Assembly (NCBI RefSeq): GCF_041248615.1
Contig: NZ_CP158426.1
Source: Escherichia coli
GTDB taxonomy: Bacteria > Pseudomonadota > Gammaproteobacteria > Enterobacterales > Enterobacteriaceae
Reading direction: 5' to 3' (one strand)
Length of the DNA: 64,000 nt
Shown piece after piece: positions 11,589 through 51,824 of this stretch. The notes under the pieces are model-generated. The model did not search any database and was not told where the DNA came from. It saw only the letters and a list, made by a program, of their open reading frames with translations. How positions within the stretch are numbered: the stretch's first letter is position 1; each line of letters starts with the position of its first letter. Made by a program: the position numbers and the translations under genes.

Positions 11589-11657
11589 GATCAGCACCTC
11601 CGACGGATAAACCTGTTAACCCCTGCTTACTGAACGCCGCCCGTTCAATATACAGCG

Positions 11658-23371: not shown

Positions 23372-23382
23372 TACGGGATCCA

Positions 23383-24691: not shown

Positions 24692-25747
24692 TCAGGATAT
24701 GGGCTGGGTGTCTAACAGTGCGTAAGGGTTAAAACGGATCACCTCTTCGCCCAGCCAGTCGTTGACGTGTTTCATTGCTTCCATGACGGGCATCAGTTCG
24801 TTAATGGCAAACACACGGGCTGCCTTCTCCACATCCCCGAATGACCCCTTCTCACCCGGCATGGCCCCCATCAGCTGCGGCGGTACACGGTGCACGGACA
24901 GCACATCATCACGCGATGCAGCCTTGACGTTCATGAACTCATCCTTTGCGGTGATTTGCTGAAACGGCAAAATCTGTACGCCATCCTTACCACCTCCCGC
25001 CGCGTGGATGAGCAGATTTTTAAACGCCCCGCCACCACGCGCGCTTTGCAGTGTTTCCCGCAGTTTTTCCATGCTTTCACGGTCAACCTGCGCCGCACCG
25101 ATGTAGACAATACAGCCCGCGTGTGAGCCGTTATCGTAGTAGAGCTTGCGGAAGATATCGGCGGAATGTGACAGGCTGGCAGACAGCAGGCCGCCCAGGT
25201 AATCCGGCATCCCGTAAATCTCCTGGTTGATATCAGGATTCATCAGGTGGCATATCGTCCCCTCACGAAAGCGGTACTCTTCCTGTCCTTCCTGTATATA
25301 CCACCATGATTTCATATCGCTGCCACGTCGCATGTATTTCGCCAGCGCCCGGCGCAGGGCCAGCGGTTCGCCAAGCATGTTGCGCCGCAGCTCAAGACAG
25401 GCATTACCGAACACAAACCAGTCCATCGCCACCCCGGCGAACTCCTGGCGGGACAGCAGAGGATGTGGAATATAGCAGCCCAGCAGCACATTACGTTTGA
25501 AGCTGAGCGCCGACTGGTGCCAGGACGTCTGGCGGGCAGCCCGTGCCAGTCCGTACCAGTCAACGGGCGTTTCAAACCACCGCCCGTTGTCGGCGCAGTA
25601 CATGCTGTCCAGCAGGTCGGCCCCTGACAGCCGGTAAGGTCCTTCAAACGTGAAGGCACTCAGTGTCGGGTCGCTTCGCAGGGAATCCGCAAGGCTGCCC
25701 TGCGCTGCGCGGGCGTTCGTACGTCGTTGTTTATTTTTTCTGCTCAT
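24692..25747 (-). CDS. portal protein (P2 gpQ-like)
   Basis: 351 aa; start overlaps terminase stop; position next to gpP. Confidence 0.85.
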   Translation of the reverse strand: MSRKNKQRRTNARAAQGSLADSLRSDPTLSAFTFEGPYRLSGADLLDSMYCADNGRWFETPVDWYGLARAARQTSWHQSALSFKRNVLLGCYIPHPLLSRQEFAGVAMDWFVFGNACLELRRNMLGEPLALRRALAKYMRRGSDMKSWWYIQEGQEEYRFREGTICHLMNPDINQEIYGMPDYLGGLLSASLSHSADIFRKLYYDNGSHAGCIVYIGAAQVDRESMEKLRETLQSARGGGAFKNLLIHAAGGGKDGVQILPFQQITAKDEFMNVKAASRDDVLSVHRVPPQLMGAMPGEKGSFGDVEKAARVFAINELMPVMEAMKHVNDWLGEEVIRFNPYALLDTQPIS

Positions 25748-27498
25748 CAGAACTCCGTAACACTGAAGGGGGCGGCATCATGTTCACCGCCGACAGGTTC
25801 GTTGATAACGGCCAGCATGGTGGCCCATGCAAGATCGCCATGGCTTACGCCTCTTGCGCGATCTGTTTCGTAGGTGATAAATCCGGCCTGCGTTTTTGTT
25901 TTGCGTACCGCGTTAAAGGCGCTCACCAGTTCGCGCTCGCTGCGGTCGTACTCCCACCGCCCGGCGCGCATGAGCTGCAGCATCTTCAGAACCAGCGTGC
26001 GCTTTGATGACAGGGTGAAGGTGTAGGGAATGGCTGCCGGAAAAAAGCGCTTCACAATCTGATACACCGCATCCCCGTGACCGCCGGTTACGTCAATACC
26101 GATATGCTCAACGTTATAGCGAAAGGTGAACTCTTCAATCACCTTCGCCTGCGCCTCAAACTCCAGCCCCTGCACCCGCCGCGTCTCCACGGTGCGAAAA
26201 CGCCCGCCCGGTACGGCTGGCGGCACCACCACGACAACCGCCCCGCTGTCACCGTTCCCGCTACTGCCGTTGGCGTCGTACCCAATCCACACAGGGCGGT
26301 TCCCCATCGGACGCGGTGCAAACGGCTTCCAGTCCGGCCACTCGTCGTATCCGTCAACACCGCAGCCAATCAGGATATTCAGGTTAAATGCCGATTCCCC
26401 TTCGCGAGCAAATTCACACATGTAGAGATTGCGGAACTCGTCTTCAGTGTTATTGCGCCGGATTTTGTCAATGTTGGTTAACGTCCATCCCTGACTGACC
26501 ACATCTTCCAGCGTCACAATTTGCCGCCAGATATAGTCAGGACAGATAAGGCCGTTATGAAGCGCATTCCAGCTCACATCAAAATGCTGACGTTTATGAG
26601 TACGAAGCCCTTCATTCCAGTGATCGCCGTTCCAGTATGCATACGCCTCATGTGTTTCACTTGATGGCGTGGAAAAATAGGTACACCGCAAACCATCCAG
26701 CGTTGCCATAGCAGCAGCCACCTTGCGCAGCTCTGCGAAACGCCCCGTCCAGAAAAACTCATCAAAATACAGATTCCCTGTGTACGCTTGCGCGGTGGCC
26801 GCAGAAGTGCCGAGAAAATGCAGCTCTGCACCGTTGGAGAGGATGACTTTATCGCCCCCTTTCAGTTCCACATCAACTTCAGATGCAGCCTTCTGAATAA
26901 TGCTTTTAAACTGGAGCGCCTGACGACGAGACGCAGACAAAAAAATCTGGTTACGCTGGTAAGGTTGTGCCACATCGTCACGCAGCGCCATCAGCAGCGC
27001 TTCCTGCGCAAAATACCAGGTCGCCCCAATCTGGCGGGATTTCAGGATCATCCTGTCAGTAATTCCGGCACGCTCACAGGCACCGATAGCATCAAGCCAT
27101 TTGCGCTGGTGTCCGGCCAGCCTGTCGGTAATTTTTTCCCGCAGCGCCGCGATCTGTTCCGGCGTGAAATGATTTTTGTGTTTTTTCGCCCGGCCTTTCT
27201 TTCCTGTTGCCGTCTCATCCGGCAGACCGTCATGCAGCTTTTTAAGCTGACGGGTCAGCAAATCAATTTCCTTAAAGTCCCCGCCTGTTTTATTCTGTTT
27301 TTCCGTGAGCTGAATGAGTCGCGCATCCATGGACTGCGTGACACGCTGAACCGGGGGCGTCTCATCCCACTGGTCGCGTTTTTTCCACGAATGGATCGTG
27401 TTCTGGTTGATACCCATAAGGCGGGAAATTTCCGCAACAGGGTAACCCTGCCAGTACAGCTGGCGTGCCCGCTGGCGAACAAATGTATCCTGAATCAT
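25747..27498 (-). CDS. terminase large (ATPase) subunit (P2 gpP-like)
   Basis: 583 aa; divergent from gpO across a late promoter region. Confidence 0.85.
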   Translation of the reverse strand: MIQDTFVRQRARQLYWQGYPVAEISRLMGINQNTIHSWKKRDQWDETPPVQRVTQSMDARLIQLTEKQNKTGGDFKEIDLLTRQLKKLHDGLPDETATGKKGRAKKHKNHFTPEQIAALREKITDRLAGHQRKWLDAIGACERAGITDRMILKSRQIGATWYFAQEALLMALRDDVAQPYQRNQIFLSASRRQALQFKSIIQKAASEVDVELKGGDKVILSNGAELHFLGTSAATAQAYTGNLYFDEFFWTGRFAELRKVAAAMATLDGLRCTYFSTPSSETHEAYAYWNGDHWNEGLRTHKRQHFDVSWNALHNGLICPDYIWRQIVTLEDVVSQGWTLTNIDKIRRNNTEDEFRNLYMCEFAREGESAFNLNILIGCGVDGYDEWPDWKPFAPRPMGNRPVWIGYDANGSSGNGDSGAVVVVVPPAVPGGRFRTVETRRVQGLEFEAQAKVIEEFTFRYNVEHIGIDVTGGHGDAVYQIVKRFFPAAIPYTFTLSSKRTLVLKMLQLMRAGRWEYDRSERELVSAFNAVRKTKTQAGFITYETDRARGVSHGDLAWATMLAVINEPVGGEHDAAPFSVTEF

Positions 27499-27560
27499 TT
27501 CTCCCCCTCATGTGATTCAGGCAGTTTACTCACCCCTTACAGGCCTCCTGCCATGCCCGG

Positions 27561-27585
27561 TGTTGTCGGCATTCGCTTACAACAA
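27561..27585. promoter_or_regulatory. Ogr-type late-promoter dyad (TGT-N12-ACA) between divergent gpP and gpO
   Basis: TGTTGTCGGCATTCGCTTACAACAA; centre about 76 and 80 bp from the two start codons. Confidence 0.5.
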
Positions 27586-27652
27586 ACGCACTTTGTCTGT
27601 CCCTGCCCCGTTTTGCCATCATGAGACAAACGATCATCACGAGGGCCCGACA

Positions 27653-32460: not shown

Positions 32461-32605
32461 ACACCCCACCTGGGGAAATATCGGGATATGGAGCGACAGC
32501 CTCCTGGATGCACTGGAAACCTGCAACGCAGACAAACGGGCCATTGAGGCGATGGAGCGCCGGAGACTCAACCGACAGAACGGAGAGGCGCATGCTGAAA
32601 AGTAA
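32291..32605 (+). CDS. o-spanin lipoprotein (Rz1 / P2 LysC-like), out of frame within and beyond the i-spanin gene
   Basis: GTG start with SD AGGAAGGAG; signal peptide with lipobox LLTGC; Pro-rich. Confidence 0.65.
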   Translation: MNSFAKLLRRMSAPALFLTTVLLTGCANTRNAPLPAPSFRFIPAGLTTGTRPPPFPEHPTWGNIGIWSDSLLDALETCNADKRAIEAMERRRLNRQNGEAHAEK

Positions 32606-33056
32606 ATCCCTGAGCACACACATGAGTACAGCGTGCCGGTGGTGCAGGGCCAACCCGGAAAAGTTCACCGTGTTCATTGAACGTGGCGGGATAGAGACCA
32701 CCGGCGAGACGCCGACGTTCGTGTACAACTACCGGCTGGTGATGTTCGTGATGGACTACACGGGCGATCTGGACAACCTGACGCTTCCACTGATTGTCTG
32801 GCTGGCAGAGAACCAGCCGCAGTTGCTGCTTAATCCTGAGCGCAACAACGATATTCAGTTCACGGCGGCCATTAACGACGACGACAGCGCGGACGTGCTG
32901 TTTGAGCTGCCGTTACGTGAACGCGTGCGCGTCACCCGCAGGGATGACGGCACCCTCATGACAGAACATCTACCGGAGCCGAAATCACGCATCCCGCAGG
33001 ACGGCGACTGGTCACACATTCTGGAGGATGTGACGTGGAACATTGTCACCGGATAA
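32592..33056 (+). CDS. tail completion protein (P2 gpR-like)
   Basis: 154 aa from ATG 32592 with SD GGAGAGG. Confidence 0.8.
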   Translation: MLKSKSLSTHMSTACRWCRANPEKFTVFIERGGIETTGETPTFVYNYRLVMFVMDYTGDLDNLTLPLIVWLAENQPQLLLNPERNNDIQFTAAINDDDSADVLFELPLRERVRVTRRDDGTLMTEHLPEPKSRIPQDGDWSHILEDVTWNIVTG

Positions 33057-33071
33057 CACGCGGAGAATGTT

Positions 33072-33728
33072 ATGGGGAAACTGAGATACCGTAACCTCGT
33101 TCCCGCTGAAGGAATGAGTAACATGTTTGTCAATATCCGGCTGGCAACCAGCCCGCAGGCAGTGAAGCGCATTGCCGCGCATGTGGGTAAGGAGCTGCGG
33201 CGCGTGAACCAGAGCCGGATGCGCGCCCAGAAAGCGCCGGACGGTTCGGTGTGGACACGCCGTAAACGCCGTATATCACGCCTTCAGGAGCGCATCAGCT
33301 TTATCTGGCAAAACCAGAACCGCACCCTGAAAAACTGGCATCACGGTTCAGGAAAATACGGCCAGACCATCACCGGCTGGGATGAAGACCGGAGCGGCAT
33401 ACGTACCTTTTACCGGAGTGATATCCTCCGTTTCCTTGAAATCAGGACACGCCGCATCAACCGTGACACCACAAAAACGGTGCCGATGTTTGCGAAGCTG
33501 CGCACGGCCCGTTATCTGAAAGTGAAGGCGGACGCATCAGGCGTGACGGTGGGCTACAGCGGCGTGGCGGCACGCATTGCCCGCGTTCACCAGTTCGGGG
33601 AGCGCGACCGGGTGGCCGCAGGGATGTATACGGATTATCCGGCCCGTGAACTTCTTGGAATAACACCGGCAGATGAACGACTTATTCAGCGTATCATTAT
33701 GGACAATATCGCGAGGGCTGTGGCATGA
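33072..33728 (+). CDS. virion morphogenesis / tail completion protein (P2 gpS-like)
   Basis: ORF open from 33072 (SD GGAG); true start may be internal (33114) giving a shorter product. Confidence 0.7.
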   Translation: MGKLRYRNLVPAEGMSNMFVNIRLATSPQAVKRIAAHVGKELRRVNQSRMRAQKAPDGSVWTRRKRRISRLQERISFIWQNQNRTLKNWHHGSGKYGQTITGWDEDRSGIRTFYRSDILRFLEIRTRRINRDTTKTVPMFAKLRTARYLKVKADASGVTVGYSGVAARIARVHQFGERDRVAAGMYTDYPARELLGITPADERLIQRIIMDNIARAVA

Positions 33729-35553: not shown

Positions 35554-36109
35554 CAGGAAAAAAACAGACAGCGCACAGCACAGTACATCACTGCTTCCAC
35601 CGTCCGCAGGGCCATTCATGCGCGCCACAGAGGCGACAGGAGTACGCATCAGTACCATACCGGTGGACGCCGACACCCTGTGGTCGCCGGACCGCTGCCC
35701 TGCTCACCTCCTGCCCTACCTTGCATGGGCATGTTCCGTTGACAGCTGGGACCGCAACTGGCCGGAAGAGACCAGGCGACAGGTGATTCGGGACGCATGG
35801 ATGATACATCGCCACAAAGGGACCATCAGTGCACTCCGCCGCATCGTTGAACCACTGGGCTACCTCATCCGTGTATCAGAATGGTGGGAGTTTGACGGCT
35901 CGCCCGGGACCTTCACCATTGAGATTGGCACACTTGAAACCGGAGTAAGTGAAGAGCTGCATGAAGAAATGGAGCGTCTGATTGCCGATGCGCGCCCCGT
36001 CAGCCGCCACCTCGTGGGGCTTAGTATCATCCAGGAAATACACGGTGCCATTTACGCCGCTGCCGCAGGTTACGACGGCGACATCATCACCATTTACCCG
36101 GAAGACTGA
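35546..36109 (+). CDS. baseplate protein (P2 gpI-like)
   Basis: 187 aa from ATG 35546 overlapping gpJ stop. Confidence 0.8.
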   Translation: MSDRKKTDSAQHSTSLLPPSAGPFMRATEATGVRISTIPVDADTLWSPDRCPAHLLPYLAWACSVDSWDRNWPEETRRQVIRDAWMIHRHKGTISALRRIVEPLGYLIRVSEWWEFDGSPGTFTIEIGTLETGVSEELHEEMERLIADARPVSRHLVGLSIIQEIHGAIYAAAAGYDGDIITIYPED

Positions 36110-36112
36110 ACC

Positions 36113-38347
36113 ATGAGCACGAGAAAATTCAGAACCCTTATCACCGACATCGGGCTGGCAAAGCTGGCCGCAACAACGGCGCCTGGCGGTAGACCTGTAC
36201 GCCTTACGCACATGGCTGTAGGGGACGGCAATGGAGAGCTTCGTCAGCCGCAGAAAAACCAGACATCGCTTTACAATGAGGTTTGGCGCCAGTCTGTCAA
36301 CCGCGTCTTCACCGACCCGGAGAACCCGAACCGCCTCATCGCCGAACTGGTCATTCCTCCTGAAACCGGCGGATTCTGGGTGCGTGAAATTGGTGTGTTT
36401 GATGATACAGGTACAATGATTGCAGTAGGAAATACCGCTGAAAGTTACAAGCCCACCAGAGAGGAAGGTTCAGGGCGGGCGCAGATATTCCGTGCAGTAA
36501 TCACCGTCACCTCCGACGCCGTGGTGGAACTGGTCATGGACACAACAACAATTCTGCCGACCACGGACTACATTGATGAGAAAATGGCGGAACACGCACG
36601 TTCCCGTAACCACCCTGACGCGACACTGACAGAAAAAGGATTCACCCAACTGAGCAGCGCCACAAACAGCACCTCTGAAACACTGGCCGCCACACCGAAG
36701 GCCGTCAAGGCTGCATATGACCTTGCAGCCGGTAAAGCACCCGCCAGCCACACCCACCCGTGGAATCAGATAACTGGTGTGCCATCAGCCTCGCTGACGG
36801 CAAAAGGCACCGTACAGCTGAGCAGTGCCACAAACAGTGAGTCAGAGACTGAGGCGGCCACCCCCAAAGCGGTTAAAGCCTTACACGATATGGTGACGAG
36901 CAAGTATACAGGACAGGATGCAACCACCGGACGCAAAGGCATCGTACAGCTGAGCAGCGCCACAAACAGCAATTCCGAAACACTGGCGGCCACACCGAAG
37001 GCAGTAAGTGATGCACTGAGCATGGCGTTCGTGAAGCCAACAACATCCCTGGGGGAAACAGACCTGAACACTCTGGGGCGTAAGGAAGACGCGGGAGATT
37101 ATTACCAGCAGAGTGACTCAGGTGCGAGAACAGACAGAAACTATCCTGTAGAGAAGGCAGGAGAGTTACGCATCCGTGTTGGTGCATGGGGATTCTGCCA
37201 GCATGAATACACGAGCTGGGATCCGCCACGAAAATTTATCAGGACAGTTACCGGAAACTTTAACGGTAACGGCCCATGGTCAGAGTGGGTGGAGGTGACA
37301 AACACAGATGCAACAACTGGACGCAAAGGCATCGTACAGCTGAGCAGCGATACAAACAGCAATTCCGAAACGCTGGCGGCCACACCAAGAGCCGTCAAGG
37401 CTGCATATGACCTTGCAGCCGGTAAAGCACCCGCCAGCCACACCCACCCGTGGAATCAGATAACAGGTGTGCCATCAGCCTCGCTGACGGCAAAAGGCAC
37501 CGTACAGCTGAGCAGTGCCACAAACAGTGAGTCAGAGACTGAGGCCGCCACCCCCAAAGCGGTTAAAGCCTTACACGATATGCTGACGAGCAAGTATACA
37601 GGACAGGATGCAACCACCGGACGCAAAGGCATCGTACAGCTAAGCAGCGCCACAAACAGCAATTCCGAAACGCTGGCGGCCACACCAAAAGCTGTTAAAG
37701 CTGCGTATGACCTTGCCAACAGCAAAGCCTCGGCAGCCCACACTCATCGCTGGGCTCAGATCACAGACGCCCCTGTTTTTTCGTCTGTTGCCCGCGTCAT
37801 CATGGGTAAACAAAGCATAAAAGATATTCTTGATTACTTTGGTTTAGGAGAAGGCTCGACGCTGCCAGTTGGCGTACCCGTTCCGTGGCCTTCGTCAAGA
37901 CCACCTGAGGGGTGGTTACAGTGCAACGGTGCCGCATTCACGCGTACAAAATACCCAAAACTGGCGGTGGCCTACCCTGACCTCAGGCTACCAGATTTGC
38001 GCGGGGAATTTATTCGTGGATGGGATGACCTGCGAATGATTGACAGGGGACGCTTATTGTTATCCACACAGGAAGCAACATATATTTGTACCGCCATACA
38101 GGCGTACCACGGCGTAGCGGGAGGTGCAGATATTCAGGCAGGGATTTCATTTGCATCACATGATAACGACATCATAAACATAACCCCTGATCAACCCAGA
38201 ACCGGTAACGGCATCCTGTACGGCACAAAACCAGTTGACAGATGGGCAATAGCCAGAGCCGGTAAGCTGGTGAGTAATGAAAAAGACAGATGGATAGCGA
38301 TCAGACCGCGCAATATCGCTTTTAATTATATTGTGAGGGCAGTTTAA
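36113..38347 (+). CDS. tail fibre protein (P2 gpH-like) with internal repeats
   Basis: 744 aa; repeated 35-aa units (GRKGIVQLSSATNSxSETLAATPKAVKA); divergent lower-GC C-terminal tip. Confidence 0.85.
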   Translation: MSTRKFRTLITDIGLAKLAATTAPGGRPVRLTHMAVGDGNGELRQPQKNQTSLYNEVWRQSVNRVFTDPENPNRLIAELVIPPETGGFWVREIGVFDDTGTMIAVGNTAESYKPTREEGSGRAQIFRAVITVTSDAVVELVMDTTTILPTTDYIDEKMAEHARSRNHPDATLTEKGFTQLSSATNSTSETLAATPKAVKAAYDLAAGKAPASHTHPWNQITGVPSASLTAKGTVQLSSATNSESETEAATPKAVKALHDMVTSKYTGQDATTGRKGIVQLSSATNSNSETLAATPKAVSDALSMAFVKPTTSLGETDLNTLGRKEDAGDYYQQSDSGARTDRNYPVEKAGELRIRVGAWGFCQHEYTSWDPPRKFIRTVTGNFNGNGPWSEWVEVTNTDATTGRKGIVQLSSDTNSNSETLAATPRAVKAAYDLAAGKAPASHTHPWNQITGVPSASLTAKGTVQLSSATNSESETEAATPKAVKALHDMLTSKYTGQDATTGRKGIVQLSSATNSNSETLAATPKAVKAAYDLANSKASAAHTHRWAQITDAPVFSSVARVIMGKQSIKDILDYFGLGEGSTLPVGVPVPWPSSRPPEGWLQCNGAAFTRTKYPKLAVAYPDLRLPDLRGEFIRGWDDLRMIDRGRLLLSTQEATYICTAIQAYHGVAGGADIQAGISFASHDNDIINITPDQPRTGNGILYGTKPVDRWAIARAGKLVSNEKDRWIAIRPRNIAFNYIVRAV
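36640..37700 (+). repeat. near-identical ~330-bp duplication inside the tail fibre gene
   Basis: segments around 36640-36990 and 37300-37690 almost identical at DNA level. Confidence 0.7.
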
Positions 38348-38958
38348 TGAGTAACACTGCAGTTCTGGATGAAAACGGTATCGCCACTTTCGCAGGCGAT
38401 ATCACTGTATATCACTATGATGAGGAAACCCGGGAATACACCTCATCCTCTGTGGAGTATCTCGCCCTGGGGGTGGGTACCCCGGCACATTCATGCGCCG
38501 ATGCCCCGCCAGAGGCAATGCCGGGTTACGTGATTTGCCGGACGTCCACGCTGGACGGGTGGGAGTATGTCCCCGATCATCGTGGAGAGACGGTATACAG
38601 CACAGAGAACGGTAATCCGGTCCAGATTACCCAACCAGGTGACTACCCGGAAGGGACAACGACAAAACAGCCTGCCACACCATGGGATACCTGGAACGGT
38701 GAGGCGTGGGTAACCGATACAGAACGGCAGCAAGCCGAAGAGCTGGAGGTTGCCAGACAGCAACGCAAGGAACGGGTGGATCAGGCGATGAAGTCCATCG
38801 ACCTCATCAACCTTAAGTTGCGGGCAGGTCGCAGTCTGACACCAGAAGAAACGGCAAAACTGAATGCCGTGCTGGATTATATCGACGAGCTGAACGCACT
38901 GGATATCAGCACGGAGCCTGAAATAAGCTGGCCGGAAACACCACCAGAAATGGAATGA
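38347..38958 (+). CDS. tail fibre assembly chaperone (P2 gpG-like)
   Basis: 203 aa; ATG overlaps gpH stop. Confidence 0.8.
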   Translation: MSNTAVLDENGIATFAGDITVYHYDEETREYTSSSVEYLALGVGTPAHSCADAPPEAMPGYVICRTSTLDGWEYVPDHRGETVYSTENGNPVQITQPGDYPEGTTTKQPATPWDTWNGEAWVTDTERQQAEELEVARQQRKERVDQAMKSIDLINLKLRAGRSLTPEETAKLNAVLDYIDELNALDISTEPEISWPETPPEME

Positions 38959-39028
38959 GCGGGGAAAAGGAACGGGCATTCATAAATAATTCATCATGCA
39001 GGTGCCGCAAGAATGCGGCACATTACCT

Positions 39029-39517
39029 TCACATCAGATCATTTACGCCGCTTACTGTGGTATTCCAGACCGAACTTAACTTCCCTTTCATTCCCGAAAG
39101 CATATCAGACACCGGCGACGAGGCCATACTCTCCCGCAAATCCTCATCACAGCGTTCCAGACTGACAGTGAACTCAATTTTTTTGGCCTTACCGTGGCGG
39201 TCAAGTTCGCTTCGCGTTGTGCGGACAGCCGTTATCACATACATGCCGTATATCTGCCCCACACCGTCAATCAGCGGCCATGGGCGACCAGTGTAAGCCT
39301 GCGTCGTTAAAAGGCTGAGGGAAACCTCACCGCCGGTAATTTCGGGATAAAGCACACCGGACAACGTGATCTGGTCGTCACCCGCCCCGATATACTGCCA
39401 GCTGGCCGAACGATTGATGCGTTCATTTTTAACGTGGCGCCAGGTTTTATTATGTTGCAGTTGTTGATGAGGCAGCGTACGCAACTCAAAAACAAACATG
39501 CCGTAAATCATCATCAT
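39029..39517 (-). CDS. tail protein (P2 gpU-like)
   Basis: 162 aa; last gene of the reverse-oriented tail block. Confidence 0.8.
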   Translation of the reverse strand: MMMIYGMFVFELRTLPHQQLQHNKTWRHVKNERINRSASWQYIGAGDDQITLSGVLYPEITGGEVSLSLLTTQAYTGRPWPLIDGVGQIYGMYVITAVRTTRSELDRHGKAKKIEFTVSLERCDEDLRESMASSPVSDMLSGMKGKLSSVWNTTVSGVNDLM

Positions 39518-39528
39518 GCGAGGTACTC

Positions 39529-42500
39529 CTAATCTCTGTCACGGAAACTACCGACTGTCTGGCGGATACGGCGTTCCATTTCCGCACGGACGGCATCACC
39601 CACCATTTTTGCCAGTTCGCGCGGGTTTTGCGTGTGAACATCATGCAGGTGAATATGCAGTTCGCCAGTTAATCCCCATGGTGCCGGCTCACTCTGGCGC
39701 GGTCGGGGCGATGCGGGGGATATGGGCTGGCGCACAGCCTCAACCACCGGACGGGATGTTGCCGCCATCACTGGTGTCATTAGCGGGGAGAACGTCGGCA
39801 TGACATCGTGAGTCATAACCGGTTTGATCACCGGCGGAACCACTGGCGTAATATTACCGGACAGTACCGGACGGACGACCGGAGGAATAACCGGCACATT
39901 ATTCACGGACACCACCGGCTTCACGACCGGCGACACGTTCGCCGTGGTGGATATCAGCGGCGAAACACTGACAGGCGGTGGCGCTGGCAGCGGTGGCAAC
40001 GAAGGCACACTGACCGACGGCACCTGCGGCAGTCTGACAGGTGGCTCACTGACACTACCCGGTAACAGGGAAGCTGCTCGGTTAAAGCGTTCCTCCTTCC
40101 ACTCACCACGAACGGCCAGCGCTTCCGGCAGGTTTTTAAAGATAATATCGCCGGGACCAGCGCGTTTTTTCGCCTGTTTCGCCTCATCCAGCAGACCACC
40201 GGTGTTATCGACGATTTTGTTCAGGCGGCGCATAGTGCCGGTATTCTCCCCCGTCAGGGGTGGTTGCCCCCCTTTGGGTTTTTCGCCGTCTTTTTTATCC
40301 TCGTCCTTTTTCGGCGGATTAATGACGTTAACATCCGCCAGAAGCATGGCAGCTTTCTCGTTCAGCAACTCCTTCTGTTTTAGTTCTTCCGCCTTTTTCC
40401 GGGCGCGCTCAACCGCCGACGGAATCAGCCCGAGTTTTTCCAGCACCCGGGTTAATGAGTCAATCAGCAGCGTAACCGGACCGGTCACCAGATTGCTGAT
40501 AAACTCCCCTACCTTCTGCCCGAACGTACGCCCGGCTTCCGTGCACTTGTCCAGCTCATCCTTTGTTGTGCTTACCGGCGCGAACAAATCCACGAACCAC
40601 TGCCACACACGCCCGATTGTCTGCCCGACATACTCAAACAGCGGTCCCAGTGGTGCCACAGCCTCGCGCAGTGGCGTAAGCCCCTGCCACAGGCCGGACA
40701 AGAACCCGCCCACGACAGCCTTCAGCTGGTCCCAGTGCCGCCAGATAAGCACTGCCGCACCGACCAGTGTCGCCACCACAAGGCCCACCGGACTTAACAG
40801 AAAACCCAGCGCCCCGCCAAGTGCGCCCACCGCACCACTCACCATCCCCCACAGTGCGGGCAGACCTGACAGTCTGAGCGCCAGTATTCCGATACCGCGC
40901 CCCAGTGAAATCAGTGCGCCGCCAGGTGAAGTGAACGCAGCCAGCAGACCACCACGCAGCGCGCCAAGTCCCGCCTGCACACCACGAAGCCGCCCCGCAA
41001 CTACGCCCAGCAGTGCAGCAAACCGTCCGGCACCGGAGGTGATACCGACAAACAGCACGCGCCAGCCACCGATACCGCCCAGCGGACCACCGAGTACGCC
41101 GCGCAGCTGCGTCAGTAACGGCAGCGCACGACCGAGGCCGGATGTGCCGGTCAGCAGGGCAAACCCAAGACGCAGTTTTGCCAGCGGCCCCATCAACACA
41201 CCAGTGGCAAGTGACAGCGCCCCCATGGCCGCAACCGCAGCCAGCAGTACACCACCGGCAATCAGCAGTTGTTTTGTCAGTTCAGGGTGCGCCTGAGCCA
41301 GCGCGGTGACTTTCGCAATAACCCGGGTGAACGACTGCGTGACAGAACGCAGCGGCCCGTCAACGAGGTCAGCGACACGGATACGCAGTCCTTCCCATGC
41401 GCTGTTCAGTGATTTCAGGTCACCGTCCAGGTTATCAGCCATAACACGGGCAGTGTGATTAAGTTCCCCGGTGGCCAGTTCAATCTCCTGCGTAAGACGG
41501 GGAAGATTATTTTCCCCCGCCGCAGTGACAAGATTCATCAGGGAAACATAGGACTCCTGCCCGGCAATAGCCCTGAAAAAGGAGACCTGCGCGGCATTAC
41601 CGTATTTTCGGGTGGCCTGGTACAGCTCATTCAGGATATTTTCCATCCGGCGCATGTTCCCGTAAGCATCCTGCGTCTCCACGCCAAGCTCTTTCAGTGC
41701 CATTGCAGCGGCCTTCGGCGGATCAACCAGACGTGACAGACTGGCACGCAGCGCCGTACCTGCATCACTTCCACGGATCCCCACACTGCCAAGGACACCC
41801 GTCATGGCTGCCGCCTGTTCAAGGGACAGGCCAAGTGAAGCTGCAACCGGACCCGTGTACTTCATGGTTTCACCCAGTGAACGGAGATCCGTATTGGTTC
41901 GTGTGAAGGTGGCGGCCAGCGTGTCACCCACGCGATCCATCTGGTCAGCGGACAGACCAAACTGTGTGAGGATATTCGAACTGATATCGGCAGTCTGTCC
42001 CAGGTCCATCCCTGCAGCCATTGCCAGATCAAGCACGCCGGGTAGCGCCGCCTGTATGGCCTGTGGTGTGAAGCCGGCCATGGCAAGGAACGCCTGACCG
42101 CTGGCAGCATCACCGGCGGTAAACTGCGTTTCAGAGCCCAGCTTAATGGCCTGTTCGCGCAGCGCCTTAAACTGCGGACTGTTTTTGTCAATACGGGTCA
42201 GCGCCTGGACGCGTGACATCTCCTTACCAAAACTGACCGCCGGTTGCAGGAAACGTCCGGCCGCATAGCCGCCTGCCGCCGCCGTACCAACCGCCGTAAG
42301 TCCGACCGTTTTAAGTTTTCCCGCCGTCTCCTGAGCACGGGAATATTGCTGGCGTGCCTGCGTGACACGTGCCAGCGCCTGCCGTTCGCGTTCCAGCTGG
42401 TCGTTGTATTGCTGTGTTCGCCGTATGGCCTGTTGAATGGTGTTGTCACTGCCGGAAAGCGCAATACCGTGGCGCCGCAGCTCACCACCCAGTTCGCGCA

Positions 42501-42840
42501 TTCGCTGAACTTCACGCGCACGGACCTCATTGAGACGCTCAAGTTTGAGGCTCAAATCGTTCATCAGCTTTTTCTGTTTGTCAGACAGCACGGTTCCGGC
42601 GCGCTGAATTTGCTGAAGTGCGCTTAACTGGCGTTGCGCCCTGACAATGCCGTTTCCGGCCTTGTTTGCAGCCTCGCGGGCGCGATCAAATGAACGGGCG
42701 TAGCGTTCCAGGTTTTTGATCGCACCCTGCGTTCTCTGTATGGAGTCGCCAAGCTGGCCCATCATGCGACGGGCGTTTTCGGTGGGACGGGTCAGCCTGT
42801 CAACAGCGCTGAAGGCGACCCGTATATCAAGCGTTTTCAT
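39529..42840 (-). CDS. tail tape measure protein (P2 gpT-like)
   Basis: 1103 aa from ATG 42838-42840; coiled-coil/Ala-Gly-rich core; Pro/Val-rich C-terminus. Confidence 0.85.
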   Translation of the reverse strand: MKTLDIRVAFSAVDRLTRPTENARRMMGQLGDSIQRTQGAIKNLERYARSFDRAREAANKAGNGIVRAQRQLSALQQIQRAGTVLSDKQKKLMNDLSLKLERLNEVRAREVQRMRELGGELRRHGIALSGSDNTIQQAIRRTQQYNDQLERERQALARVTQARQQYSRAQETAGKLKTVGLTAVGTAAAGGYAAGRFLQPAVSFGKEMSRVQALTRIDKNSPQFKALREQAIKLGSETQFTAGDAASGQAFLAMAGFTPQAIQAALPGVLDLAMAAGMDLGQTADISSNILTQFGLSADQMDRVGDTLAATFTRTNTDLRSLGETMKYTGPVAASLGLSLEQAAAMTGVLGSVGIRGSDAGTALRASLSRLVDPPKAAAMALKELGVETQDAYGNMRRMENILNELYQATRKYGNAAQVSFFRAIAGQESYVSLMNLVTAAGENNLPRLTQEIELATGELNHTARVMADNLDGDLKSLNSAWEGLRIRVADLVDGPLRSVTQSFTRVIAKVTALAQAHPELTKQLLIAGGVLLAAVAAMGALSLATGVLMGPLAKLRLGFALLTGTSGLGRALPLLTQLRGVLGGPLGGIGGWRVLFVGITSGAGRFAALLGVVAGRLRGVQAGLGALRGGLLAAFTSPGGALISLGRGIGILALRLSGLPALWGMVSGAVGALGGALGFLLSPVGLVVATLVGAAVLIWRHWDQLKAVVGGFLSGLWQGLTPLREAVAPLGPLFEYVGQTIGRVWQWFVDLFAPVSTTKDELDKCTEAGRTFGQKVGEFISNLVTGPVTLLIDSLTRVLEKLGLIPSAVERARKKAEELKQKELLNEKAAMLLADVNVINPPKKDEDKKDGEKPKGGQPPLTGENTGTMRRLNKIVDNTGGLLDEAKQAKKRAGPGDIIFKNLPEALAVRGEWKEERFNRAASLLPGSVSEPPVRLPQVPSVSVPSLPPLPAPPPVSVSPLISTTANVSPVVKPVVSVNNVPVIPPVVRPVLSGNITPVVPPVIKPVMTHDVMPTFSPLMTPVMAATSRPVVEAVRQPISPASPRPRQSEPAPWGLTGELHIHLHDVHTQNPRELAKMVGDAVRAEMERRIRQTVGSFRDRD

Positions 42841-43045
42841 GCTCTGCGTTCCCGCTGCGAAGGGCCGCCCGCTCACGCCAGGCGACCACCTCGCCGGGAT
42901 CCATCAGGAAGATTTCAGCGGGAGACCAGTTGAAAATAACGGCGATATCCGCCACAAAGTCTTCAATGTGCTCAAAGGGCACGACGGTTATCAGCCTGCC
43001 GTCGCCGCCCCGCTCTTCCCGCCAGAGTCCTGACCGGCCAAAAAA
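42827..43045 (-). CDS. gpE' extension reached by programmed -1 frameshift
   Basis: slippery TTTTTTG (plus-strand 43039-43045); -1 frame open until a stop overlapping the gpT start. Confidence 0.5.
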   Translation of the reverse strand, partial: FFGRSGLWREERGGDGRLITVVPFEHIEDFVADIAVIFNWSPAEIFLMDPGEVVAWRERAALRSGNAEHENA

Positions 43046-43353
43046 TTAACCGCCACCCCGCACAGCTGAATAAAATCAGCGGACCCCATGCGCTTAAGCA
43101 GAACCTCGTCCAGTCGCGGCGAAGTGACGCGCGGGAGTAACTCAAACATCGCGTCCGTTTTCATGTTCAGCACGTCAAGCAGTGACAGCCCGCGCAGTGA
43201 ACCGGCCTGCTGTACAGCAGGCGTGATTTCCACATACGTGATTTTTTTGTTACCGAGCACAAGGGGCGTTTTCAGCGTCACGCCGCGCTCACTGGTCACG
43301 TCCGCCGCATCAGCACCGTCAGTAACAGGGGCAACAACCGGATTTTCTTTCAT
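42991..43353 (-). CDS. tail assembly chaperone (P2 gpE-like)
   Basis: 120 aa; slippery heptamer TTTTTTG near 3' end. Confidence 0.75.
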   Translation of the reverse strand: MKENPVVAPVTDGADAADVTSERGVTLKTPLVLGNKKITYVEITPAVQQAGSLRGLSLLDVLNMKTDAMFELLPRVTSPRLDEVLLKRMGSADFIQLCGVAVNFLAGQDSGGKSGAATAG

Positions 43354-43403
43354 GCATAAAACCTCAAATCAGGGGGCGACGCCGCGCGCCGCCGTGGGAA
43401 ACA

Positions 43404-43922
43404 TTAACCACCAAGACCAATCGCCGAGCGCACGCGGTCCGGGAAGACGTTTTTGCCGTCCTTGCGTTCGATGTGGTTCAGTAAATCAATCTCCAGCACC
43501 GGACGGTCGTTAATGCTGAGTTTGTAGTAGGTACTCCTGACCGCATAGGTGTGAGACGTGACCTCACCCTGTTTTGCCTCCCCCGTATCAATTTCCGTCA
43601 CGCGGCCGCGAAGCTCAATTTCATACAGGTCGCTCTGCTCTTCATCGTTGTAGTACTCACCGACAAAGCGCAGCAGCGTACCGTCGATCGTGCCGCCGTA
43701 CTTAAGGAACAGTTCGCGGGTCGGCCCGCCCATGGTGAAACTCGCATCCAGCGCGCCGTCATCCAGACCAAGGTCGATATTCACCGCGCCGGCCATACCA
43801 CCACCGCGATAGGCTTCCGTTTTACGGGTCAGTTTGGGGGGCGTGAAGCCGGTCACCCTGCCAATCTGGTTCACCCCGTCAGTAAACAGCGTGAACACCC
43901 TGAGATTTTTTGGTACGGCCAT
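43404..43922 (-). CDS. tail tube protein (P2 gpFII-like)
   Basis: 172 aa; conserved KLTRK and EIDTGE regions. Confidence 0.85.
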   Translation of the reverse strand: MAVPKNLRVFTLFTDGVNQIGRVTGFTPPKLTRKTEAYRGGGMAGAVNIDLGLDDGALDASFTMGGPTRELFLKYGGTIDGTLLRFVGEYYNDEEQSDLYEIELRGRVTEIDTGEAKQGEVTSHTYAVRSTYYKLSINDRPVLEIDLLNHIERKDGKNVFPDRVRSAIGLGG

Positions 43923-45205
43923 TAAGCACCTCCAAGCGTCGCAAATGCAGGACCAAAGAATTCATCAGTAAACGCCTGGTAAAGTTCCATATCCTCAAGC
44001 GGCGGAACGGGCGTGTACTTGTAGCGGATACGCACGCGTCCCTGACGAAGTTCCGTGGTGCTGTTATCCACCACGTCATACCAGCACTCCGCACCAATGA
44101 GACGTCCTGACGTAACCAGCGCATCCAGTTTTGCGCGAATTGCGCTTAACACGTCTTTCACATTAGCAGGGGTCAGCGGGGCATCAATCGTTTCAAACTG
44201 CGCTTCCGCAATGGAATCAGCCAGCACCTGAGCGGTTCGCGTGTACACCTCAAAGATATACGCCTTCGTTTCCGGCGTACGGTTGCCCCAGAAGCGGAAA
44301 CCGTTACGGCAAATGATGGTAGTGATTTCCTTGTTGTTGAGATTGTTGGCATCGCTGTCTTCGGACTGAAGGGACCAGAACACCGGGCTGGAAATACCCA
44401 GCACATTTCTTACCGGCACGTTGGACAGCGATTTATGCCAGCCCTGTTCGTGGTCAATACGTGCACGTAAACCGCAGGCGTACGCCGCAGCCGGGAAGAC
44501 CTCATTAGCGCCGGATTTCGGGTTATGGGCGATGAAGTCCGGCCAGACCAGCATAAGTTCGCGCTCGTTAAATCTGGCGCGGTAGCTGATTGCATCGGCG
44601 GGCTTCTTGCAGTTGTGACAGCCCGCGTAGACAAATGCGCGAAGTTTTTCTGCAATTACACACAGGGATTTTGTGACAGCTTCAGTATCCAGTCCGGGAG
44701 CTGCGATGATGCGCGGACGGTAACCGATGGCATCATCCTGTTCAGCTATCAGAAGTGCATACATACCGGTATAATTACCGTCGCCATCCGTGCCACCAAT
44801 GACATACTGGTCCTGCGTTTTGTGTGGGTATACAGGATGTGCATCTTCAGACTCATCAATACCAAAAAATGCCCTGTCTTCAGGATCCAGATGACCGAAT
44901 GATGTAACTCCTGTATCCGGGGCGCCCTGAGAACTGGCATCAGGAACGCGCACCACAATCACCTTCGTGCTCACCTGGTCGGCGACAGCCTTAAGCGATT
45001 TGTAAAGCGTCCCCTTTGTGCCGGCCTTACCCAGCACATCACTGACGCGGGTCAGCAGTGTGGGTTTGTTCAGCGGGAACAGAGTTTCATCCGCGTCATC
45101 TGCCGTAGCCACAATACCAATAACACTGGAATCCACATCATTAATGGCGGTGGCAAGGCCGGTACTTTCCCTTACGCGCGCACCATGAAAGCGTGTTTCA
45201 CTCAT
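43922..45205 (-). CDS. tail sheath protein (P2 gpFI-like)
   Basis: 427 aa from ATG 45203-45205 (MSETRFHGARV); track ORF start at 45352 is an unsupported extension. Confidence 0.85.
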   Translation of the reverse strand: MSETRFHGARVRESTGLATAINDVDSSVIGIVATADDADETLFPLNKPTLLTRVSDVLGKAGTKGTLYKSLKAVADQVSTKVIVVRVPDASSQGAPDTGVTSFGHLDPEDRAFFGIDESEDAHPVYPHKTQDQYVIGGTDGDGNYTGMYALLIAEQDDAIGYRPRIIAAPGLDTEAVTKSLCVIAEKLRAFVYAGCHNCKKPADAISYRARFNERELMLVWPDFIAHNPKSGANEVFPAAAYACGLRARIDHEQGWHKSLSNVPVRNVLGISSPVFWSLQSEDSDANNLNNKEITTIICRNGFRFWGNRTPETKAYIFEVYTRTAQVLADSIAEAQFETIDAPLTPANVKDVLSAIRAKLDALVTSGRLIGAECWYDVVDNSTTELRQGRVRIRYKYTPVPPLEDMELYQAFTDEFFGPAFATLGGA

Positions 45206-45278
45206 ATGTTTCACCCTTGTCTGGCTGGTTGATTTTGCGTAATCATTACCCACACACGCGGTAATCTCACCCCTTTGA

Positions 45279-45302
45279 TGTTGTCTCCTGACAGCGACAA
45301 CA
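45279..45302. promoter_or_regulatory. Ogr-type late-promoter dyad between divergent gpFI and gpD
   Basis: TGTTGTCTCCTGACAGCGACAACA; centre about 85 and 76 bp from the two start codons. Confidence 0.5.
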
Positions 45303-45366
45303 AAACAGCCATTCAACGCCGCTGCGGTGCATGAAACCATTACAGAACGCACCAGGAGAGAACACC

Positions 45367-46458
45367 ATGAAAGAGCTGTCAGTTACCGTTCCGTCACCGG
45401 ATATCGACATCACCATCAACAACAACACACTGGCAAACCTCACAGAGCGACTCATGACGCTGACCCTGACGGATAACCGGGCCTTTGAGGCAGACCGCGT
45501 CACCCTCACCCTTGACGATACGGACGGGCAGTTACAGTTGCCACCACGTGGCGCACGCCTGAGAGTGATGATTGGCTGGCGAGGAGAATCACTGGTTAAC
45601 AAGGGCACCTACGTCGTTGATGAGGTTGCGTGGGAAGGACCTCCAGATAAACTGATCATCACCGCCAGCAGCGCAGATTTTCGGGAAGAGTTCAACGTGA
45701 GGCGGGAGGTATCCTGGCACGACGTGACCGTAAAACAGGTTGTGTCAGCCATCGCTCACCGCTACGGCCTGAAGACACAGATAAGCGAAATCCTCATGGA
45801 TATCGAAATTGACCACGCTGACCAGACCGAAGAGAGCGATATATCCTTCCTGACCCGCATGGCTGAAATGCTGGGTGCGATTGCCACCGTAAAAAACGGC
45901 AGCCTGTTATTCATTCTGCCGGGTGGCGGAACCGGGCCGGACGGAAGAGCCCTGCCTTCGTTCGCCATTACCCGCAGCAGCGGCGACAGTCACCGCTTTC
46001 GCATTGCTGACCGTGATGCGTATACGGGGGTCCGGGCGCACTGGCTCGATCTGAAGTTCGGGCACAAGAAAAAAGTGAACGTGAAGCGACGCAGGGAAGC
46101 CGGGAAACAGAAACAGGAGAAGAGCAGCAGCCGGGAGGGTGATTACATGGAAGGCGCGGAAGGGAACGTCTACGTTCTGCGCAGGACTTACCAGAATGAA
46201 GAAACCGCACGACGTGCAGCTGCGGCAAAGTGGCAGGAGTTACAGCGGGGAGCAGCGGCATTCTCCATCACTCTGGCACGGGGTCGTGCCGACCTGTATC
46301 CCGAAATGCACGGCAGGGTAACAGGTTTTAAAAGCGAGGTGGACAATCAGGACTGGATTATTGCCAGGGTGGAGCACATCATAGATGAAAGCGGCTTCAC
46401 CACACAACTGGAGCTGGAAGCGAAAATCCCCGAATGGATAGCAGATTCAGGCGGATAA
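45367..46458 (+). CDS. tail protein D (P2 gpD-like)
   Basis: 363 aa from ATG 45367 with SD AGGAGAG; N-terminus MKELSVTVPSPD. Confidence 0.8.
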   Translation: MKELSVTVPSPDIDITINNNTLANLTERLMTLTLTDNRAFEADRVTLTLDDTDGQLQLPPRGARLRVMIGWRGESLVNKGTYVVDEVAWEGPPDKLIITASSADFREEFNVRREVSWHDVTVKQVVSAIAHRYGLKTQISEILMDIEIDHADQTEESDISFLTRMAEMLGAIATVKNGSLLFILPGGGTGPDGRALPSFAITRSSGDSHRFRIADRDAYTGVRAHWLDLKFGHKKKVNVKRRREAGKQKQEKSSSREGDYMEGAEGNVYVLRRTYQNEETARRAAAAKWQELQRGAAAFSITLARGRADLYPEMHGRVTGFKSEVDNQDWIIARVEHIIDESGFTTQLELEAKIPEWIADSGG

Positions 46459-46501
46459 AATTAAAATGAGCCATCTCCACTCAGCCAGATAAGGAGAAGC
46501 C

Positions 46502-46753
46502 ATGTTCCGTTGTCCCCTATGCGGTGCATCCGCACGTATCCGCACCAGTCGCAATGAAAATGATTCAGGCACAGTTCGCCTGAAGTACTACCAGTGCAAT
46601 AACCTCGAATGCGGGATCGGCTTTACCACACTGGAGGGTTTTAACAAATTCACATCAAAACGCGCCCCGTCGCCGCAGGGTACAGAGCGGATACCGTGGG
46701 AAGATTTTCCGGGATCTCACAGGGGGAATACTCAGATTAATCTTGATATTTAA
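46502..46753 (+). CDS. ogr: Ogr/Delta-family zinc-finger late activator
   Basis: 83 aa; MFRCPLCG...YYQCNNLEC four-Cys finger; SD AAGGAG. Confidence 0.85.
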   Translation: MFRCPLCGASARIRTSRNENDSGTVRLKYYQCNNLECGIGFTTLEGFNKFTSKRAPSPQGTERIPWEDFPGSHRGNTQINLDI

Positions 46754-46759
46754 GAACAA

Positions 46760-46897
46760 TAATCAGGTTGAGAGGACATCATAAGGCAAGTAGATTAACG
46801 GCAGATACTTTCCCGCAACCACGGGCAAGTATTTAATTATCCATGATGAAATATGACCTAAATTGTTTTTTGCCCGCCGGAAAGCGGGCATTTTTTT
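46760..46897 (+). repeat. repeat unit 1 (partial) ending in bidirectional intrinsic terminator
   Basis: shares GTTGAG...AGTAGATTA...CCATGAT...TTTTGCCCGCCGGAAAGCGGGCATTTTTTT with four downstream units. Confidence 0.55.
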
Positions 46898-47111
46898 ATT
46901 CTTTTGTGGTTATGGGGTCATCAGGAACCACGTGCAGATTATATTTTTGTTTTTTTGGCGTTCCTCCGGCAGCAACGAGTTCATCAATAAGACACTGACA
47001 CGCCTGAACATCCCGGGCATGTCTTAGTTTCACCTTTATTGATTTAACCTTATCCTCACCGGAGGAGAAATGCAGTTCAATCTCAATATCGTTTCTTCGG
47101 AACAATCTCAT
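46896..47111 (-). CDS. small protein of unknown function
   Basis: 71 aa (MRLFRRNDIEIELHF...); two decayed copies downstream; palindrome upstream. Confidence 0.5.
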   Translation of the reverse strand: MRLFRRNDIEIELHFSSGEDKVKSIKVKLRHARDVQACQCLIDELVAAGGTPKKQKYNLHVVPDDPITTKE

Positions 47112-47331: not shown

Positions 47332-47562
47332 TTTTGCCCGCCGGAGAGCGGGCATTTTTTTTGCGCCTGCCATCGAGGCGCCTTCCCTGGCGCACACAAA
47401 GCAGCCCTGATTTTCCATGAAAACTTCAGGGTTGAGCTGCGGGCACAAAGTGAGTAGATTAGCTACGGGTACCTCCCCCTGACAACAGGAAGGGTGTCCA
47501 TTATCCATGATATACAAACGAAAAGTCTTGTTTTTTGCCCGCCGAAGCGCGGGCATTTTTTT
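47332..47562 (+). repeat. repeat unit 2, terminator-to-terminator (candidate structured sRNA)
   Basis: bounded by GCCCGCCGGAGAGCGGGC and GCCCGCCGAAGCGCGGGC hairpins with T-runs; internal conserved hairpin CCCTGATTTTCCATGAAAACTTCAGGG. Confidence 0.5.
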
Positions 47563-47688: not shown

Positions 47689-47922
47689 GTGGAAAGGCCC
47701 CGGAAAACATTTCTGTTTAACCGAGGCCCTAACCGCATTACCTTGACAAGTGAAAGGTTAGCGCCTCTCCGGAAAAGGAGCAAGTGCTATGTCGCAAAAA
47801 TCGCTTACGGCCATCACGTTCTGCGTGACGGCAATCCTCATCATCTGGATATTGCACGGTTCGCTGTGCGAAATACGGATGAGCTTCTGGGGAGCGGAGT
47901 TTGCGGCGTTCTTACAATGTAA
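47689..47922 (+). CDS. mok-like overlapping reading frame of hok locus 1
   Basis: 77-codon frame starting upstream of and overlapping hok, as in hok/mok/sok loci. Confidence 0.35.
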   Translation: MERPRKTFLFNRGPNRITLTSERLAPLRKRSKCYVAKIAYGHHVLRDGNPHHLDIARFAVRNTDELLGSGVCGVLTM

Positions 47923-47929
47923 GAAGTAA
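47789..47929 (+). CDS. hok: Hok/Gef-family type I toxin
   Basis: 46 aa MSQKSLTAITFCVTAILIIWILHGSLCEIRMSFWGAEFAAFLQCKK; SD AAGGAG; single TM plus conserved LCE and AAF motifs. Confidence 0.7.
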   Translation: MSQKSLTAITFCVTAILIIWILHGSLCEIRMSFWGAEFAAFLQCKK

Positions 47930-50467: not shown

Positions 50468-50482
50468 AAAAGCGCCCGCAGG
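50468..50482. repeat. attR core, overlapping the serS intrinsic terminator
   Basis: identical to 10492-10506; continues into GCGCTTTTT terminator 3' of serS. Confidence 0.55.

Positions 50483-50510: not shown

Positions 50511-51824
<1,314 letters not shown>

Follow-up and report, generated by a model that had tools for sequence, protein, structure and literature searches.

The tail block FI-FII-E/E'-T-U of an Escherichia coli prophage was found on the strand opposite to its neighbours G and D, and the explanation that best accounts for this placement, and that we hold with good confidence, is a single inversion that occurred long ago and has been inherited by every known member of the P88-like branch within the P2 family (Peduoviridae). 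The prophage, contained in a 64-kb stretch of E. coli DNA (hereafter the window), is an E. coli member of that branch. The arrangement of the tail block itself is already known from annotated P88-like phages; in the literature searched on P88, Xuanwuvirus and SEN4/5, no explicit description of the inversion or of its gene order was found.

The prophage is inserted between dmsA and serS and carries the structural and regulatory genes typical of P2. In an identical E. coli region, PGAP annotates Q and P diverging from O-N-M-L, as well as a P2-family capsid, the gpA replication endonuclease, int-C-cox and ogr, and P2 orthologues were found in the window by tblastn. Proteins of the prophage display 65-86% identity to those of P88, and when an 11-kb query (36000-47000) was compared by megablast with P88 and P884B11, 12% of it was covered at ~78% identity; the ICTV criterion for a genus is at least ~70% nucleotide identity across the whole genome, and the prophage probably falls outside Xuanwuvirus, the genus of P88, on this measure. 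Furthermore, the tail proteins group with the P88-type clade and not with canonical P2-like phages: FI shares 51-77% identity with clade members and at most 45.6% with all others in the phage collection, and D 58-79% versus at most 52%. The features discussed below are compiled in Table 1.

Table 1. Genes and sequence elements in and around the tail block of the prophage (window positions).
Feature	Position	Strand	Evidence and remarks
Q	24692-25747	-	same strand as in P2
P	25747-27498	-	same strand as in P2
Second dyad copy	27562-27586	.	GTTGTCGGCATTCGCTTACAACAAA; divergent P|O spacer
gpG-like tail fibre assembly protein	38347-38958	+	last of rightward V-W-J-I-H-G run; ORF; phrog_105, E 2.3e-87; PGAP 'tail fiber assembly protein'
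GC-rich hairpin	39002-39021	-	GTGCCGCA-agaa-TGCGGCAC; 8-bp stem, 4-nt loop
gpU-like tail protein	39029-39517	-	phrog_76, E 3.4e-71; 80% identity to P88 U, 50% to P2 U
gpT tape measure	39529-42876	-	TIGR01760, E 6.8e-78; phrog_28, E 1e-181
gpE'	42827-42982	-	phrog_1756, E 2.1e-25; E+E' is a -1 frameshift product, 42827-43353
gpE	42991-43353	-	phrog_103, E 4.7e-31
gpFII tail tube	43404-43922	-	TIGR01611, E 2.7e-34, above curated cut-off; PHROG tube, E 1.3e-54
gpFI tail sheath	43922-45205	-	427 aa; phrog_23, E 1.8e-117
Divergent FI|D control region	45206-45366	.	dyad GTTGTC-N11-ACAACAAA at 45280-45304
gpD, VgrG-related baseplate hub	45367-46458 (ORF from 45331)	+	phrog_52, E 1.4e-147; PGAP start 45367
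ogr/Delta-type zinc-finger late activator	46502-46753	+	phrog_603, E 7.6e-14; PGAP 'ogr/Delta-like zinc finger family protein'

The original prediction, made from the sequence alone, had assigned FI through U (39029-45205) to the minus strand and the flanking G and D to the plus strand, which the open reading frames confirm, and the gene identities that it had proposed are upheld by the PHROG profile matches. It had also stated that in P2 the genes FI-FII-E-T-U-D are co-directional with V-W-J-I-H-G, and the P2 record bears this out. Its description of the block as inverted relative to all other late genes stands for G and D and has to be narrowed for the rest, since Q and P also lie on the minus strand, as they do in P2. 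The genes and their internal order are those of the P2 F operon (pF-FI-FII-E/E'-T-U-D, followed by ogr), and the tail proteins of P2 and the prophage share 32-50% identity (tblastn). As in P2, where a -1 frameshift is annotated in E+E', the frameshift is intact, with a slippery TTTTTTG at 43045-43039 and a -1 frame that stays open for 72 codons, to 42827. For T, the ATG at 42840 (1103 aa) is the probable start codon, in place of the GTG at 42876 where the reading frame begins; the alignment with P88 T starts at residue 13. The tape measure is ~170 aa longer than that of P88, the sheath is 77% identical to the P88 sheath and carries a 33-aa insertion, and no DNA-level tandem repeats were found in the block. 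The difference from P2 lies in the direction: the P2 F operon runs along V-G with D overlapping the U stop, whereas in the prophage FI-U is flipped and D possesses its own start region. In both cases ogr follows D, and FI is preceded by an activator site, which is putative in the prophage.

The same layout is annotated in six ICTV genera of Peduoviridae (Xuanwuvirus, Gemsvirus, Novemvirus, Reginaelenavirus, Reipivirus and Senquatrovirus), and was found in phages P88, phiT5282H, 3LV2017, SEN5, ST16-OXA48phi5.4, 500465-2 and Serratia phage KSP20. In P88 and its allies, including SEN4/SEN5 and KSP20, V-W-J-I-H-G occupy one strand, U-T-E'-E-FII-FI the other and D-ogr the first again, with FI and D diverging, exactly as in the window. 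The block is consequently ordinary and no anomaly, because this is the fixed gene order of a described P88-allied group that is common in E. coli; the unusualness implied by the original prediction is thus refuted by annotated records and tblastn strands, on a condition that it had itself named, while its preference for a lasting trait of the lineage or an old inversion over an assembly error proved right. A strand comparison of FI, D and J in ~47 phage records separates both states: in all records with FI at 51% identity or more, FI is opposite to D, and also to J among the matches listed, and all canonical records for which the strands of FI and D could be matched up (P2, ST437-OXA245phi4.1) display FI identities of ~43%. 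A chimeric U+D query placed U next to D and in the same direction in 395 of 514 phage records, those of distant Vibrio, Mannheimia, Ochrobactrum, Microcystis and Mu-like phages among them. Since U-to-D adjacency is therefore the widespread state, the inversion is taken as derived and old. The same query matched 563 places in the 514 records (49 extra), and the five two-place matches sampled all corresponded to records of the inverted clade. That one event accounts for the whole clade is deduced from these gaps in identity and not from a formal phylogeny.

An assembly error, in which a 6.2-kb block was flipped in the source genome, had been left open by the original prediction, and its sole basis is that a single sequence is unable to exclude an artefact; nothing else was found in its favour. 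Against it, 27 complete chromosome records of E. coli, drawn from various strains and laboratories and with at least 18 distinct chromosome lengths, are collinear in one piece over both junctions of an 8.2-kb region (identity of at least 99% in 26 and of 93-95% in at least three), and the layout recurs in independently sequenced phages of the six genera. Moreover, in 5,426 E. coli genomes no match to a synthetic un-inverted U-to-D junction reached 80% cover, although 2,420 of these genomes carry one or both of the U and D halves, never joined, with a median of two places per genome. These collinear records and absent opposite junctions remove the artefact, whose probability we regard as negligible. 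No more credible is an active invertible segment, flipped by an invertase and present in both orientations within populations, in the manner of Mu G, P1 C and Salmonella hin, which likewise have a reversed tail-related block beside tail-fibre genes. In P88 and phiSM the G/U junction itself even harbours a serine DNA invertase gene, with alternative tail-fibre cassettes beside it; in the window prophage, however, G and U are separated by 70 bp and a hairpin, and neither open reading frames nor PGAP revealed an invertase gene there or near the block. The search for cryptic inverted repeats at the junctions, which the original prediction had proposed as a check, yielded 89 pairs in 38300-46600, and among the 25 longest none has an arm at each junction. 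A single orientation was observed in all 27 close relatives and the six phage genera, the opposite one in no genome, and flipping the block would part D from its upstream region. With no flanking pair among the 25 longest inverted repeats and no invertase nearby, the block is not a switch: unlike Mu G, P1 C and hin, which have crossover repeats, an adjacent serine invertase and both orientations, it represents a fixed rearrangement.

The block could also have been imported in reversed orientation from a distant contractile-tail phage, replacing the resident module without any inversion in place. In keeping with this, FI is only 46-49% identical to the sheaths of P2, phiCTX and Ralstonia phages, which are 62-69% identical to each other, while for V, J, I and D, on either side of the block, the distance to P2 is no greater than that between P2 and phiCTX. 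Nevertheless, not only FI and FII but also Q, P, N and M of the head have diverged from P2 more than phiCTX has, and because this divergence is equally deep and equidistant in all of them, the block matches the backbone of its own lineage. Signs of exchange with enterobacterial P2 relatives are seen in the baseplate genes instead: J of SEN5 shares 70% identity with P2 J and 52% with J of the window. Gene order inside the block and the E/E' frameshift correspond exactly to those of P2. We therefore consider an import improbable; the pattern of divergence fits an inversion in situ within a deep branch.

Regarding the junctions, the stem-loop that had been predicted where G and U converge is present, 7 nt 3' of the U stop. 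It folds at -19.3 kcal/mol, with a z-score of -2.8 on the minus strand and -1.7 on the plus strand, and P88 and its allies share a hairpin at this place: in all relatives examined (P88, phiT5282H, 3LV2017 and SEN5) a non-homologous GC hairpin lies directly 3' of the U stop. It is likely the terminator of the leftward FI-U operon, a role that we infer only, since no canonical U-run follows it; nor does a terminator consensus scan call it. The same type of scan detected a terminator-like hairpin 3' of ogr, at 46871-46890.

At the other end, the predicted divergence of FI and D from a spacer of ~160 bp was confirmed, its length being 161 bp with the PGAP start of D. Inside its dyad there is a perfect TGT-N12-ACA core (45282-45299), and the extended motif GTTGTC-N11-ACAACAAA is present at just two places of the 64 kb, the P|O spacer and the FI|D spacer, in the same orientation, versus 0.04 occurrences expected. 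P88 and its allies share the divergent FI|D spacer (~150-200 bp) with a conserved ...GACAACAAAA half-site; the right half-site is kept in seven of seven aligned lineages, TCT replaces TGT in the left half-site of three of seven relatives, and the spacers of the relatives keep the dyad with conserved -10-like blocks ~42-48 bp to either side. As the bare core occurs seven times in the prophage, about the level of chance, its counts were not relied on alone, and weight was given to the extended motif and its conservation. A sigma-70 consensus scan gave no excess of promoters. The dyad resembles the annotated Ogr activator sites of P2, and it agrees with the Ogr/Delta late-promoter motif, a TGT-N12-ACA-type dyad centred ~55 bp upstream of the start, with the start-site spacing predicted. 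The FI|D dyad is thus probably an Ogr-type activator site common to the leftward FI and rightward D promoters. In P2, one activator site (3057-3087) is recorded between the transcription starts of P and O, a single dyad about midway between divergent late genes, like those of the P|O and FI|D spacers, and we propose the P|O dyad as the counterpart of this shared pP/pO site. P/O is the only divergent pair of P2, whose pF is unidirectional, whereas the FI|D site may be used in both directions.

With the integration of these features, an ancient inversion of FI-FII-E/E'-T-U would have had its breakpoints at the G/pF and U/D boundaries and would have divided the P2 F operon into a leftward FI-FII-E/E'-T-U unit, which may end at the hairpin just past U, and a rightward D-ogr operon. 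The promoter region carried along with FI would now stand back-to-back with D, and one Ogr-type site in the spacer could activate both divergent late promoters, in the manner of the P2 P/O site; a single site driving FI-U and D-ogr would keep the late co-regulation of all tail genes. More tentatively, and somewhat short of an even chance in our estimate, late regulation may have been rewired, the old pF site giving rise to a second bidirectional Ogr-dependent promoter pair, with self-feedback of ogr through the D promoter and possible loss of the P2 pV promoter at the same time. If so, ogr would have gained a direct positive-feedback loop, and should pV be lost, all late genes would run from just two divergent control regions; a dyad was found in front of neither R nor V, and S and V overlap.

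For annotation, an FI-U block that reads leftward between G and D warrants no flag of misassembly or anomaly in enterobacterial P2-like prophages, and the inversion serves as a dependable synteny marker for the P88-like branch. Beyond annotation practice its importance is small, with one modest regulatory point: a dyad-symmetric activator site would let an inversion preserve co-regulation through a bidirectional promoter region. Elsewhere in the window, an open reading frame at 23383-24132 matched 'DrmD' in PADLOC and was rejected as a defence gene, NCBIfam identifying it as IS21 IstB, beside IstA.

The inverted FI-FII-E/E'-T-U tail block of the prophage is not new: a populous, ICTV-classified set of P2-related phages normally has its genes in this order, as do many E. 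coli prophages. When the region was searched by megablast among phage records, the match was Escherichia phage P88; in its RefSeq record the genes U, T, E', E, FII and FI are on the minus strand, with the tail-fibre genes on one side and plus-strand D on the other. Using annotation or tblastn, we found the same layout in phages phiT5282H (Novemvirus), 3LV2017 (Reginaelenavirus), SEN5 (Senquatrovirus), ST16-OXA48phi5.4 (Reipivirus) and 500465-2 (Gemsvirus), and in a 6-kb fragment of Serratia phage KSP20, which is unassigned to a genus. Within the phage collection, FI opposes D in every record (~47) whose sheath protein is at least 51% identical to that of the window, and also opposes J wherever J was among the matches listed; the hosts are E. 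coli, Citrobacter, Enterobacter, Klebsiella, Serratia and Salmonella. Records with sheath identities of 45.6% or lower are of the canonical P2 type wherever checkable. The unusualness implied by the original prediction is thus contradicted, as P88 and allied genera form a described P2-like subgroup in which this arrangement is standard. No explicit comment on it was found in the searchable literature, and it is plain to see in public annotations.

The annotated P2 record places V-W-J-I-H-G and FI-FII-E/E'-T-U-D-ogr on a single strand, with D beginning at the U stop, in agreement with the co-directional order given in the original prediction. The block had also been described as inverted relative to all other late genes, which is wrong, since Q and P share its minus-strand orientation, just as in P2 these two genes do. 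The gene calls stood up to the ORF map and family scans, and both junctions agree with their description, the spacer between FI and D measuring 161 bp.

Coordinates of prophage and flanking features (genes G to ogr from the ORF map and family scans)
Feature	Coordinates	Strand	Remark
Direct repeat, copy 1	10492-10506		just outside integrase
Integrase	10593-11597
IstA transposase	21830-23371		part of IS21-family element
IstB helper ATPase	23383-24132		part of IS21-family element
Q and P	24692-27498	-
Extended dyad, P-O spacer	27562-27586
G	38347-38958	+
G/U hairpin	39002-39021		7 nt past U stop, 43 nt past G stop
U	39029-39517	-
T	39529-42876	-
E'	42827-42982	-	E' part vs phrog_1756, E 2.1e-25
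E	42991-43353	-
FII	43404-43922	-
FI	43922-45205	-
Extended dyad, FI-D spacer	45280-45304		core 45282-45299
D	45367-46458	+	alternative ATG 45331
ogr	46502-46753	+
Hairpin pair past ogr	46871-46890, 47335-47354		464 bp apart
hok/gef gene	~47789-47929		beyond hairpin pair
Direct repeat, copy 2	50468-50482		just before serS
serS	50511-51803

Judged by its reading frames, the tail block is functionally intact: E contains a P2-type -1 frameshift site (TTTTTTG, 43045-43039), and E' is an open -1 frame of 72 codons reaching 42827. The T start is probably ATG 42840, as in P88 and PGAP. T is ~1103-1115 aa long, versus 935 aa in P88, with a Gly/Ala/Leu-rich insertion at ~aa 516-670 and a Pro/Val-rich one at ~aa 940-1040; its ORF is intact, although in a genome with 100% identical DNA the PGAP label is 'incomplete, missing C-terminus'. 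FI residues 90-122 form a 33-residue insertion relative to the P88 sheath, the remaining alignment being 77% identical.

An assembly artefact and a reversible switch were both considered, and the inverted block is neither. The prophage lies in the E. coli chromosome between dmsA and serS, and positions 38300-46500 are collinear over both junctions in 27 complete chromosome records (26 at ≥99% identity, at least three at 93-95%) of at least 18 different chromosome lengths. Further, a synthetic un-inverted junction, joining the U 3' end to the D 5' end, was searched with blastn sensitivity in 5,426 complete E. coli genomes; one or both halves matched in 2,420 of them (median two places per genome), and in none did a place cover ≥80% of the junction. 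No invertase gene was found in the window prophage, and of the 25 longest among 89 inverted-repeat pairs in 38300-46600, none has an arm at both junctions, where a search for cryptic repeats had been proposed. These results uphold the reading of a stable lineage feature or ancient inversion. Among some E. coli relatives, length differences of ~100 bp occur somewhere within the 8.2-kb block region.

As for polarity, a chimeric U+D protein query found U next to D and pointing the same way in 395 of 514 phage records, including phiCTX and phages of Burkholderia, Ralstonia, Stenotrophomonas, Mannheimia, Vibrio, Ochrobactrum and Microcystis, with identities as low as 24-33%; since distant phages share this adjacency, the P2 order is ancestral and the inversion derived. 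The query matched 563 places (49 more than records), and the two-place records belonged to the inverted clade in 5/5 sampled rows. The block could have been imported as a foreign tail module rather than inverted in place. However, the distance between the window and P2 exceeds that between P2 and phiCTX in the sheath (FI, 46% versus 67% identity) and likewise in head genes N (40% versus 54%) and P (49% versus 59%), which indicates that the whole lineage is a deep branch to which the block is native; these pairwise identities favour in-situ inversion over import. By the same comparisons, V, J, I and D of the baseplate have a mosaic look: SEN5 V and J are 59% and 70% identical to P2, versus 54% and 52% to the window, although in FI, D and the head genes SEN5 falls with the inverted clade, so that a mosaic baseplate module lies beside a stable inverted block.

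The FI-D spacer contains a perfect TGT-N12-ACA dyad inside GTTGTC-N11-ACAACAAA. The bare core occurs 7 times in the prophage, as by chance, whereas the extended motif, with one mismatch allowed, occurs exactly twice in 64 kb (expected 0.04), in the divergent P-O and FI-D spacers. P2 has four annotated late promoters (pP, pO, pV and pF), and the single activator site annotated between its divergent pP and pO starts, ~55 bp from each, is a direct precedent for the FI-D dyad; the annotated P2 sites resemble this dyad, that of pV having the 9-mer ATGTTGTCT in common. Aligned FI-D spacers of seven lineages support an activator site, in that the right half-site (G/C)ACAAC(A)AAA is nearly invariant, the left one reads TGT in four lineages and TCT in the other three, and conserved blocks lie ~42-48 bp to either side (FI-ward GATGAT, GAATAT or TAATGAT; D-ward CATGAAACCAT). 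In the proposed model, the pF region would have been carried along with FI, and the dyad-symmetric Ogr-type site is predicted to drive FI-U leftward and D-ogr rightward from FI and D start sites in an Ogr-dependent manner; the FI-U transcript would terminate at the hairpin past U. The P-ward (27499-27563) and FI-ward (45206-45281) spacer arms share the 10-mer AAGGGGTGAG, ~44 and ~24 nt from the dyad, and the FI-ward arm holds the near-repeat GGGGTGAGATTACCGC / TGGGTAATGATTACGC. No Ogr-type dyad was found in the lysB-R or R-S gaps (32461-33728), even with one mismatch, and S and V overlap by 4 nt. The prophage may therefore lack a counterpart of the P2 pV promoter and transcribe V-G by read-through out of the O operon.

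The G/U hairpin reads GTGCCGCA-agaa-TGCGGCAC; every relative examined has a GC hairpin directly 3' of U, non-homologous among them. In P88, the interval from G to U (25416-27564 of its record) is occupied by alternative tail-fibre cassettes and a serine DNA invertase, versus a 70-bp gap (38959-39028) with only the hairpin in the window prophage, which makes this junction a variable cargo site in the inverted clade; ST16-OXA48phi5.4 has DUF262 genes there. The near-identical terminator-like hairpins downstream of ogr both read TGCCCGCCGGA(A/G)AGCGGGCA followed by a T-run; the sequence enclosed by them is AT-rich and includes a small ORF on the minus strand.

The IS21-family element (21830-24132) is sited between the replication region and the portal gene Q; a PADLOC 'DrmD' match on IstB was rejected as AAA-ATPase similarity only. 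The 15-bp direct repeats (AAAAGCGCCCGCAGG) are likely the attL and attR cores and would delimit a prophage of ~40 kb. Some carriers have a defective version of the prophage, as shown by the otherwise identical copy of E. coli F1022, with a shortened portal gene and a terminase gene reduced by truncation to a pseudogene (17920-19322 in the F1022 record).
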